Source: Candidatus Minimicrobia sp. QA0096
Lineage (GTDB): Bacteria > Patescibacteriota > Saccharimonadia > Saccharimonadales > Saccharimonadaceae
DNA length: 32,000 bases
Assembly (NCBI RefSeq): GCF_963967315.1
Contig: NZ_OZ017288.1
Span: forward strand, 600,001 to 632,000
Direction: 5' to 3'
Below, piece by piece: positions 19,546-19,920 of this stretch (position 1 is its first letter; each line of letters opens with the position of its first letter). A model generated the notes under the pieces. The model was not told where the DNA came from, did not search any database, and saw only the letters and a list, made by a program, of their open reading frames with translations. A program made the position numbers and the translations under genes.

Positions 19546-19574
19546 TTGACATCTAAATAGGGCTATGCTAGTAT
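19546..19574 (+). promoter_or_regulatory. Near-consensus sigma70 promoter (TTGACA-17-TGcTAGTAT) with no CDS behind it for about 400 nt
   Basis: TTGACA at 19546-19551, a 17-nt spacer and TAGTAT at 19569-19574, preceded by TGc. Confidence 0.6.
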
Positions 19575-19659
19575 AAGGTTAAGCTTTTAGAAAAACAAAA
19601 AAGCAAAAATACATTAACAATAAAATTTATATAAAGCCGCGTTTTTACGTATAAGTCGA

Positions 19660-19920
19660 CGGATAGTTGGCTGCATGATTTTTATAATGACGCAGCCAAT
19701 GCTCCGCCTTTACTTCGCAAATTGTAAAAGCGTTGAGCGCGCGGCTAGTACCGCATGCATCCAGTTAATCCTCGTTAAAGAACTAGCGGTGAGAGTCCTG
19801 GATGTATGCAGAGGAAAACTGCAAGGATGCTCCTTAATTAAGGAGCGGTCAAATTGCCTCGAGCGGTAATAGGCAAGTAGCACCCGCGCCTAATAGTTAT
19901 TTTTTATCGGCGGATGGTTT
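19660..19920 (+). ncRNA. Candidate structured RNA of unknown family (GC-rich multi-helix island in an AT-rich spacer)
   Basis: Hand-found helices:
- 19667-19674 with 19692-19699 (8 bp).
- 19753-19764 with 19798-19809 (12 bp, including one G:U that only works on the + strand).
- 19807-19811 with 19819-19823.
- 19829-19835 with 19840-19846.
- 19854-19859 with 19871-19876.
- Long-range 19739-19744 with 19884-19889.
- 19704-19708 with 19910-19914. Confidence 0.4.

Follow-up and report, generated by a model that had tools for sequence, protein, structure and literature searches.

A conserved structured RNA between the tmRNA gene and a three-gene cluster

The 32-kb stretch of DNA analyzed here (the window, in whose positions all coordinates are given) comes from a Saccharibacteria (TM7, Nanosynbacter-like) chromosome. 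Between its transfer-messenger RNA (tmRNA) gene and a cluster of three protein-coding genes, the window contains a 1.3-kb interval in which no open reading frame (ORF) exceeds 72 amino acids (aa). This interval holds the element described here, a structured noncoding RNA (ncRNA) that is conserved from ~19581 to ~19960 (~380 nt here and 368 to 507 nt in relatives). Its GC content is 46 to 50% over 19650 to 19900 versus 22 to 34% in the flanks, a level that resembles that of the window's other structural RNAs, all of which were called by Rfam models with high scores (RNase P RNA at 15112 to 15453, tmRNA at 18222 to 18624, three tRNAs, and 16S rRNA from 31247). The locus has the following features, the helices of the RNA being given further below.

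19546 to 19574, plus strand: promoter, with a -35 element TTGACA at 19546 to 19551, a 17-nt spacer, and an extended -10 element TGC TAGTAT at 19566 to 19574
19583 to 19604, plus strand: 5'-terminal hairpin H1, GCUUUU (19583 to 19588) with AAAAGC (19599 to 19604), A-rich loop
19611 to 19621, plus strand: boxA-like element ACAUUAACAAU, ~30 nt past the inferred start
19953 to 19961, plus strand: U-rich tract after helix P7, UUCUUGUGU
19962 to 19980, plus strand: leaderless-type promoter of TM125, with TATAGT at 19962 to 19967, 4 nt before GTG 19972 and 10 nt before ATG 19978
19972 to 23753, plus strand: RNA-linked gene cluster (TM125, P146, ATPase)
19972 to 20349, plus strand: 125-aa four-transmembrane (four-TM) membrane protein (TM125), candidate starts GTG 19972 and ATG 19978
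20404 to 20844, plus strand: 146-aa protein (P146)
20853 to 23753, plus strand: 966-aa VirD4/TraD-like ATPase, weak TraD/VirD4/TrwB matches

With the ATPase as bait, 80 loci were gathered from the genomes of different Saccharibacteria species. A search with the single RNA sequence (nhmmer) found the RNA in 75 of the 80 loci, on the same strand and ~0.9 to 1.2 kb upstream of the ATPase gene, and a profile made from the full-length alignment detected a single copy in each of the 80, of which one is cut by a contig end. Overall, the RNA was conserved in 81/81 sources. A protein-independent metagenome search with an 18-nt core RNA motif from the P6/linker region returned 75 stretches, 40 of which carry full-length homologs; the other 35 pattern matches were due to chance and lie in unrelated GC-rich DNA. 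The order RNA, TM125, P146, ATPase is kept in 80/80 genome loci, and the 40 metagenome loci have the same three genes on the same strand and in the same order wherever the stretch reaches far enough. The upstream side varies (a tmRNA is usually present, with a spacer of 0.4 to 2.9 kb and sometimes extra genes), whereas the junction between the RNA and TM125 is constant. The RNA is single copy at every Saccharibacteria (class Saccharimonadia) locus sampled.

Covariance models of the 4,227 families of Rfam 15 were run both at the gathering threshold and in a permissive scan at E values of ≤10. At the gathering thresholds, there was no match at the window locus or at 10 divergent loci. At E values of ≤10, the window locus gave two microRNA-like hairpin matches only, and three divergent homologs gave only unrelated noise (miRNA hairpins, CrcZ, and frnS) that differed between the homologs. 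Signal recognition particle (SRP) RNA, 6S RNA, T-box leaders, group I and II introns, OLE, and raiA were rejected on the ground that none of their Rfam models matched. IscB/TnpB guide RNAs and retron ncRNAs were rejected on the basis of Pfam and NCBIfam scans in which the neighboring ORFs showed no recombinase, reverse transcriptase, or nuclease, and a "GGUACC"-like resemblance to T-box RNAs was rejected as well, in the absence of a UGGN bulge, of an aminoacyl-tRNA synthetase gene, and of a model match. Full-text literature searches on structured RNAs of Saccharibacteria and Patescibacteria found no description of this element; validated small RNAs are lacking according to a TM7x transcriptome preprint, and only two ncRNAs, of the RNase P RNA and tmRNA type, are annotated (by PGAP) in a closely related complete Nanosynbacter genome (PMC8830319). 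Sequence comparison indicates that the element is a new RNA family, within the limits of Rfam 15 and the literature searched. A sequence-only reading of the window had described a promoter-driven, plus-strand, multihelix RNA of no recognized family at this position, either a cis leader or a stand-alone RNA, and this core description was borne out: no known family was found at either threshold, conservation (80 genome loci and 40 metagenome loci) and covariation in relatives were strong, and the overlapping 64-aa ORF is not conserved as a protein.

Secondary structure and covariation

The structure was derived from 60 representatives with <94% identity (32 genome and 28 metagenome loci) by using MAFFT alignments, an RNAalifold consensus, and explicit pair counting, with 500 shuffles and with pairing partners slid by 1 to 3 columns as controls. 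Folding of the plus strand gave a z-score of -4.6 relative to shuffles. The 3' core (19698 to 19960) has 62 consensus pairs, in which 93.0% of cells are paired versus 82.1% in shuffles; 41 of the 62 pairs changed on both sides, there are 483 compensatory cells, and the covariation score is 0.405 versus 0.204 for the shuffled alignments, with 0/500 shuffles reaching any observed value. When partners were slid by 1 to 3 columns, pairing fell to 29 to 44% and the covariation score to ≤0.10. The 5' domain (19655 to 19711) behaves similarly, with 15/18 pairs compensatory, 85% of cells paired versus 28 to 53% when slid, and 0/500 shuffles. The many G:U cells of the 3' core, numbering in the hundreds, fix the RNA on the plus strand. 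The helices and conserved strands are as follows.

19658 to 19663 with 19703 to 19708, plus strand: P1 of the 5' domain, GACGGA / UCCGCC, nine pairs in most lineages, encloses P0
19667 to 19674 with 19692 to 19699, plus strand: P0 of the 5' domain, UUGGCUGC / GCAGCCAA
19701 to 19708 with 19729 to 19738, plus strand: P2 hairpin (helix 1), 9 pairs, 6 compensatory
19746 to 19751 and 19811 to 19816, plus strand: strands bracketing P4 in the arm 19746 to 19816, UAGUAC and GAGGAA, invariant in the 60 representatives
19753 to 19764 with 19798 to 19809, plus strand: P4, the 12-bp helix (helix 3), 11 counted pairs, 8 compensatory
19772 to 19777 with 19784 to 19789, plus strand: inner stem of P4 (helix 4), 5/5 pairs compensatory
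19750 to 19752 with 19847 to 19849, plus strand: three-pair closure P5, ACC / GGU, invariant
19829 to 19835 with 19840 to 19846, plus strand: P6 hairpin (helix 5), GCUCCUU / AAGGAGC, 4/7 pairs compensatory
19845 to 19851, plus strand: linker GCGGUCA after P6, invariant
19856 to 19871 with 19938 to 19952, plus strand: P7, closing the 97-nt 3' domain (helix 6), GCCU.GAGCGGUAAUA / UAUUAUCGCUCAGGC, 14 pairs, 10 compensatory, 95% of cells paired
19884 to 19890 with 19909 to 19917, plus strand: P8 hairpin inside P7 (helix 9), CCCGCGCC / GGCGGAUGG, 2-nt bulge

P2 is composed of GCUC (19701 to 19704) with GAGC (19735 to 19738), CGCC (19705 to 19708) with GCG (19730 to 19732), and an apical stem (19709 to 19713 with 19724 to 19728). 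P8 covaries (A-U in 33 sequences versus C-G in 22 at pair 316-353, and C-G in 50 versus U-A in 3 at pair 323-345), and the first half of its 18-nt loop, CCUAAUAGUUAUU, is conserved. The linker GGAGCGGUCA is invariant in 60/60 representatives, and some unpaired stretches of the RNA are invariant as well. The sarcin-ricin/loop-E (bulged-G) consensus consists of opposed AGUA and GAA strands flanked by Watson-Crick pairs; the AGUA and GAA strands around P4 match this consensus in sequence, resembling such a motif.

Part of this fold had been drawn by the sequence-only reading, and part of what it had drawn did not survive comparison with relatives. Its 12-bp helix, with the pair G19757:U19805, is P4, and its palindromic hairpin is P6; both were confirmed by the compensatory changes listed above. 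The AAGGAG that it described as sequestered in P6 was not upheld as a hidden Shine-Dalgarno (SD) sequence: in most lineages the position is occupied by CUGGAG or UCGGAG, with no start codon after it. Two proposed long-range closing helices, one pairing 19739 to 19744 with 19884 to 19889 and the other 19704 to 19708 with 19910 to 19914, show no covariation (2 pairs changed on both sides versus 3.1 when shuffled and a score of 0.122 versus 0.116 in 60 sequences). They also clash with helices that do covary, CCGCC at 19704 to 19708 being used by P1 or P2 and CCGCGC at 19884 to 19889 by P8, and the GGCGG partner of CCGCC lies at 19909 to 19913, one position away from where it had been placed. A T-run at 19900 to 19905, said to follow the helices, lies inside the P8 loop and does not appear in the terminator scan; conserved and covarying sequence continues for ~50 nt beyond it, with GGCGGAUGG ... 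UAUCGCUCAGGCUUCUUG conserved to ~19960. Because pairing and conservation extend to ~19953, the T-run is not the 3' end. Two of the four helices that had been drawn explicitly were wrong, and the T-run is not a terminator.

The 5' domain and the P2 base compete for the same strand. UCCGCC (19703 to 19708) pairs either with the upstream GACGGA to form P1 or, together with GCUC, with the downstream GGCG..GAGC to form the base of P2, and the two pairings are mutually exclusive. Both covary, and the partners change in step, as in L068 (GAUAGA / UCUACC / GGUA) and L044 (GGUGUA / UCCACU / GGUG). When either helix was enforced over the 60 sequences, the resulting folds were near-isoenergetic (mean difference of -0.8 ± 5.7 kcal/mol), with P1 favored in 36 sequences and P2 in 24. 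In these alignments P1 and P2 are thus exclusive, covarying, and near-isoenergetic, a pattern typical of a conformational switch or a programmed folding pathway.

Several lineages depart from this fold. Environmental lineages (L069 to L080 and most metagenome loci; alignments A5 and A6) have a 40- to 100-nt insertion in the P0 loop with a conserved CACGCACCUUU. The oral Nanosynbacter clade, of which this window is part, lacks this element, and the P0 loop of the window is short. A shortened or replaced P4 was seen in L071, L073, L074, L076, L100, L112, L121, and L147, and some deep lineages show such changes. A mutual-information scan pointed to a possible pair between 19808 (P4 base, G/A) and ~19855 (AGUYG linker, C/U), which is G-C in 39 sequences, A-U in 14, and G-U in 6, and there is complementarity between the variable segment 3' of GGAAC and the P4 3' strand as well; both may represent further alternative pairings or a pseudoknot. 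RNAalifold also suggested that the 5' end (C/UAAG) pairs with the 3' tail (CUUG), which was rejected because the complementarity (39/56) did not exceed that with shuffled partners (37/56) to any useful extent. A search within the window for a trans target of the P8 loop gave nothing above chance.

Promoter and 5' signals

The promoter described by the sequence-only reading, TTGACA-17-TGcTAGTAT, is present as described, and a TTGnnn-N13-16-TGnTAnnnT arrangement was found at a fixed distance from the RNA in 59/59 representatives with enough sequence. It had also been called the best promoter in the window, which was not the case: by hexamer score it ties with or trails other window sites, several of which match at 11/12 positions. 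Its real support is thus its conservation rather than its hexamer score. The GC-rich structured domain was confirmed, although its limits were not 19660 to 19915; the RNA spans ~19581 to ~19960 and is about 120 nt longer than proposed. The ~60-nt 5' segment described as an A-rich leader is itself a conserved part of the RNA.

H1, within this segment, is near-invariant across lineages and unique in the window; in L048 its sequence is different yet, when read by eye, still complementary. The boxA-like element ACAUUAACAAU follows it and shows the boxA core (CUUUAACAA type, promoter proximal, in an untranslated transcript). Its positions are invariant or near-invariant (alignment A2), and it is conserved in all lineages. 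The 11-mer ACNTTAACAAT occurs twice in the 32 kb, at 19611 in the RNA and at 31168 in the 16S rRNA leader, with a chance expectation of 0.11. In the 16S leader, positions 31168 to 31178 carry ACUUUAACAAU (boxA), and a promoter-like site, TTGACC...TGTAAGAT at ~31049 to 31077, precedes this element by ~120 nt. Binding of NusB/S10 by boxA is known from rrn leaders. By analogy, H1 followed by the boxA-like element looks like the boxB-boxA layout of rRNA leaders, and we infer that the RNA may be transcribed in a Nus-factor-dependent, rRNA-style manner.

The probable 3' end and the downstream promoter

The U-rich tract after P7 has at least 5 T in 8 nt in 62% of representatives versus 16% of random positions and is of the UCUCUUGUUU type elsewhere. 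From its sequence, it is the probable 3' end of the RNA and a weak intrinsic terminator, for which the GC-rich base of P7 would serve as the stem. The terminator scan found no strong canonical terminator between the RNA and TM125, and the distance from the end of P7 to the TM125 start codon is roughly 15 to 110 nt in representatives.

TM125 appears to have its own promoter directly at its start codon. A TGnTAnnnT element lies 3 to 9 nt before the TM125 start in 38/58 representatives (as TG(G/A)TATAGT, 6 to 8 nt before the ATG), and a plain -10 element lies there in 17 more. In many lineages, an SD-like GAGG or GGGG is found 5 to 8 nt before the TM125 ATG, past the gene's -10 element. A -10 element likewise adjoins the start codon at several other genes, among them P146, which is second in the cluster (20404): at 9923, 14292, 16632 (minus strand), 20404, and 19972, a TGnTAnAAT ends 6 to 7 nt before an ATG with no Shine-Dalgarno sequence. 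This pattern suggests that leaderless mRNAs from extended -10 promoters may be common in this genome. Since the downstream genes have leaderless-type promoters of their own, they would not need the promoter of the RNA.

Proteins of the cluster and other features of the window

By its sequence, the ATPase corresponds to an orphan type IV secretion system (T4SS)-coupling-type ATPase (type IV coupling protein [T4CP]) of the conjugative coupling-protein family; among the matches listed in a homology search, only close relatives were found. A recent survey describes the orphan coupling-protein homolog to which it corresponds in Patescibacteria, which is encoded far from virB4 and is nonessential in S. 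epibionticum (bioRxiv 10.1101/2025.01.22.634366). TM125 has no detectable similarity to any Pfam or NCBIfam family. P146 has an invariant N terminus (MNPELPQ), a variable, low-complexity middle, and a conserved C-terminal segment of ~50 aa (DLIEKEWVDKLKKII...PYER...LQADYLKKRYN) that we read as helical from its sequence; it has no Pfam domain and no family assignment, and of its 259 matches in all, the named ones listed are from Saccharibacteria only.

The region between the tmRNA 3' end and the RNA promoter (18625 to 19545) is ~0.9 kb of AT-rich DNA (22 to 34% GC) without an ORF of >72 aa. In relatives, the corresponding interval is variable (0.4 to 2.9 kb) and AT rich, with extra genes in L063. 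The new RNA shares a 5-kb stretch (15112 to 19960) with RNase P RNA and tmRNA; all three lie on the plus strand, and their order is the same in L035, L079, L064, and L072. Relative to the Rfam model, the tmRNA (18222 to 18624) has a ~44-nt insertion past the tag-coding region, and ARAGORN misses most of the relatives' tmRNAs that Rfam then detects. The 16S rRNA has a 66-nt insertion at ~31322 to 31387, versus ~10 nt in the bacterial small-subunit (SSU) model, in a helix near model positions 80 to 90. Adjoining the ATPase gene on the opposite strand, 24348 to 25952 (minus strand) encodes a 534-aa protein with PKD, DUF11-repeat, and isopeptide-fimbrial-like matches, which by these matches is probably a surface protein.

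A stand-alone RNA or a cis-acting leader

We give about an even chance to the reading that this is the gene of an undescribed large structured ncRNA acting as a stand-alone, stable RNA. Such an RNA, probably abundant, is favored because the element has its own strong conserved promoter, rRNA-like leader signals, and a terminal helix and U-tract that are followed by separate promoters. In this scheme, the boxA-type element would recruit Nus factors, so that the long untranslated transcript would be protected from premature termination and its folding assisted, and the transcript would end at P7 and the U-tract. The RNA would then act in trans, most likely within a ribonucleoprotein as its RNA component or scaffold, and the P1/P2 alternative would allow it to switch conformation in its function or in its folding pathway. 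The best candidate partners would be the four-TM protein, the 146-aa protein, and the orphan T4SS-coupling-type ATPase, by analogy with OLE RNA and OapA. A more specific version, in which the RNA is a dedicated partner of the coupling-protein-type ATPase, either in a membrane-tethered ribonucleoprotein machine or as an RNA that is handled or exported toward the host cell, is speculative and rather unlikely.

A number of points weigh against a stand-alone RNA or its link to these proteins. The ends of the RNA, at ~19581 and at ~19955 to 19965, are predicted ones. Read-through into the downstream genes is quite possible, because the U-tract is imperfect (UCUCUUG...) and P7 closes a 97-nt domain rather than a compact hairpin, and a boxA-type element would itself favor read-through. 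The SD-like GAGG or GGGG before TM125 is only sensible on a transcript that starts upstream. None of TM125, P146, and the ATPase has a recognizable RNA-binding domain. Finally, the sampled genomes are all from one strongly syntenic class, so that the constant adjacency argues only weakly for the three proteins being functionally linked to the RNA.

The best-surviving alternative, a serious one though less probable than a stand-alone RNA, is that the element is a cis-acting 5' leader of the TM125/P146/ATPase cluster, working as a riboswitch or by processive antitermination. A ligand, a protein, or temperature would set the choice between P1 and P2, which would be relayed to the P7/U-tract terminator, and polymerase that escapes would, owing to the boxA-like element, transcribe the ~4.3-kb cluster processively. 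The arrangement of the locus is consistent with such a leader in that the RNA always lies directly upstream on the same strand, its last helix close to the start codon, with no strong canonical terminator between it and the cluster. Two exclusive, covarying, and near-isoenergetic helices are found in expression platforms too, P7 with its U-rich tract resembles a regulated terminator, and the boxA-like element is present. The SD-like GAGG before the ATG also fits a leader, though the gene's -10 element lies upstream of it. However, TM125 and the second gene carry their own promoters, that of TM125 being conserved and placed for leaderless transcription. Known leaders are much smaller than this RNA, which has at least eight helices in 370 to 500 nt. 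Some 200 nt separate the competing helices from the putative terminator, no antiterminator covarying with P7 was found, and the gene content suggests no ligand.

It is improbable that the element is instead a very divergent SRP (4.5S/small cytoplasmic RNA [scRNA]) RNA or 6S RNA that annotation pipelines have missed. In the relative noted above, two ncRNAs are annotated, and RNase P RNA and tmRNA score well above threshold in this window, so that probably no SRP or 6S RNA has been annotated; the strong promoter and the clustering with RNase P RNA and tmRNA within 5 kb would also suit such a universal stable RNA. Against this, no SRP or 6S model matched at E values of ≤10 in the three divergent homologs, and the 60-sequence alignments contain no SRP helix-8 motif (GGAAGCAGC type, with a GNAR tetraloop) and no conserved hairpin capped by GNAR. 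The architecture of 6S RNA, a rod of ~180 to 200 nt with a central bubble, is not that of the multibranched 368- to 507-nt fold given by covariation, and the RNA exceeds 4.5S or 6S RNA two- to threefold in size. In addition, the search covered the 32-kb window, and a normal SRP RNA may lie elsewhere in the genome.

The region beside tmRNA is a classic integration site, and the tmRNA lies 0.4 to 2.9 kb upstream across a variable AT-rich spacer. Together with an ATPase of the conjugative coupling-protein family, this setting could point to a remnant or cargo of a mobile element, e.g., a guide or regulatory RNA travelling with a conjugation-type ATPase. We consider this very improbable. The block is single copy and at the same chromosomal position in every lineage sampled and thus behaves like part of the core genome; no integrase or relaxase was seen, nor any repeats, and no copy of the RNA was found in a collection of 2.9 million viral contigs.

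A small protein gene or a chance GC-rich patch with fortuitous hairpins can practically be dismissed: an ATG-initiated 64-codon ORF does overlap the RNA at 19675 to 19869, as previously noted, but it is not conserved at the protein level (substitutions of 143/176/141 by codon position in 29 distinct close relatives, frame-breaking indels of 2, 4, 5, 7, 11, and 13 nt common, intact in 8/29, and no Pfam match), and the covariation exceeds every shuffle and slid control. Plus-strand ORFs of at least 50 codons occur within the RNA in 19/60 representatives, and the longest ORFs differ in strand and length.

Comparison with known systems and significance

Large ornate RNAs of bacteria have been reviewed (PMC12286853). 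OLE/OapA of the Bacillota resembles the present locus in that a large, ornate, highly conserved RNA of one lineage lies directly upstream of a small four-TM protein gene; however, the two RNAs share no homology in sequence or structure, there was no Rfam match to OLE, and the likeness is one of genomic arrangement only. OLE works as a membrane-associated ribonucleoprotein and is ~610 nt long, versus ~380 nt for the new RNA. No OapB- or OapC-like genes are present here, and the cluster ends instead in a T4SS-coupling-type ATPase. The raiA motif is likewise a complex ncRNA upstream of a characteristic gene with the look of a leader, and raiA RNA is regarded as a transcript of its own, and an abundant one (PMC5737381; PMC12968392). 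Unlike the new RNA, it is found in Bacillota and Actinomycetota rather than Saccharibacteria, and its RNAs are often far from the downstream gene, whereas the distance is roughly 15 to 110 nt here; the two are unrelated in sequence and structure.

The rRNA operon leader (boxB and boxA) shares with the new RNA a strong promoter, a hairpin, and a CUUUAACAA-type element ~30 nt into an untranslated transcript, and the 11-mer ACNTTAACAAT is common to the genome's own 16S leader and found nowhere else in the window. In contrast, no rRNA follows the element of the new RNA, and A or C replaces U at the second position of its core. Large riboswitch and T-box leaders have the same upstream position on the same strand, conserved unpaired junction nucleotides, exclusive covarying helices, and an end stem with a U-rich tract. 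They differ in that no model matched, the new RNA is about twice as large, and the downstream gene is served by a promoter of its own; there is also no candidate ligand and no identifiable antiterminator. A motif named after TM7, lysM-TM7, is among the 224 motifs of a 2017 survey (Weinberg et al. 2017, PMC5737381). It, too, is a candidate structured RNA specific to Saccharibacteria, but it is an unrelated, small leader that precedes lysM genes, and no Rfam family matched the locus of the new RNA.

Saccharibacteria are obligate epibionts with tiny genomes of ~0.7 Mb and very short intergenic regions. An RNA that is kept in every sampled lineage, with invariant unpaired stretches and an rRNA-style signal, is likely to be important for such organisms. 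Few large ornate RNAs are known in bacteria (OLE, ROOL, GOLLD, and raiA), and their discovery has opened new biology; the new RNA would add to them, and it gives a concrete handle on the orphan T4SS-coupling-type ATPase of Patescibacteria. Saccharibacteria are genetically tractable by natural transformation (PMC10633639), and the role of the RNA is therefore directly testable. If it is a partner of the ATPase, a conjugation-type motor would have been put to a new use, and the RNA would represent a new class of large functional RNAs that is universal in Saccharibacteria.

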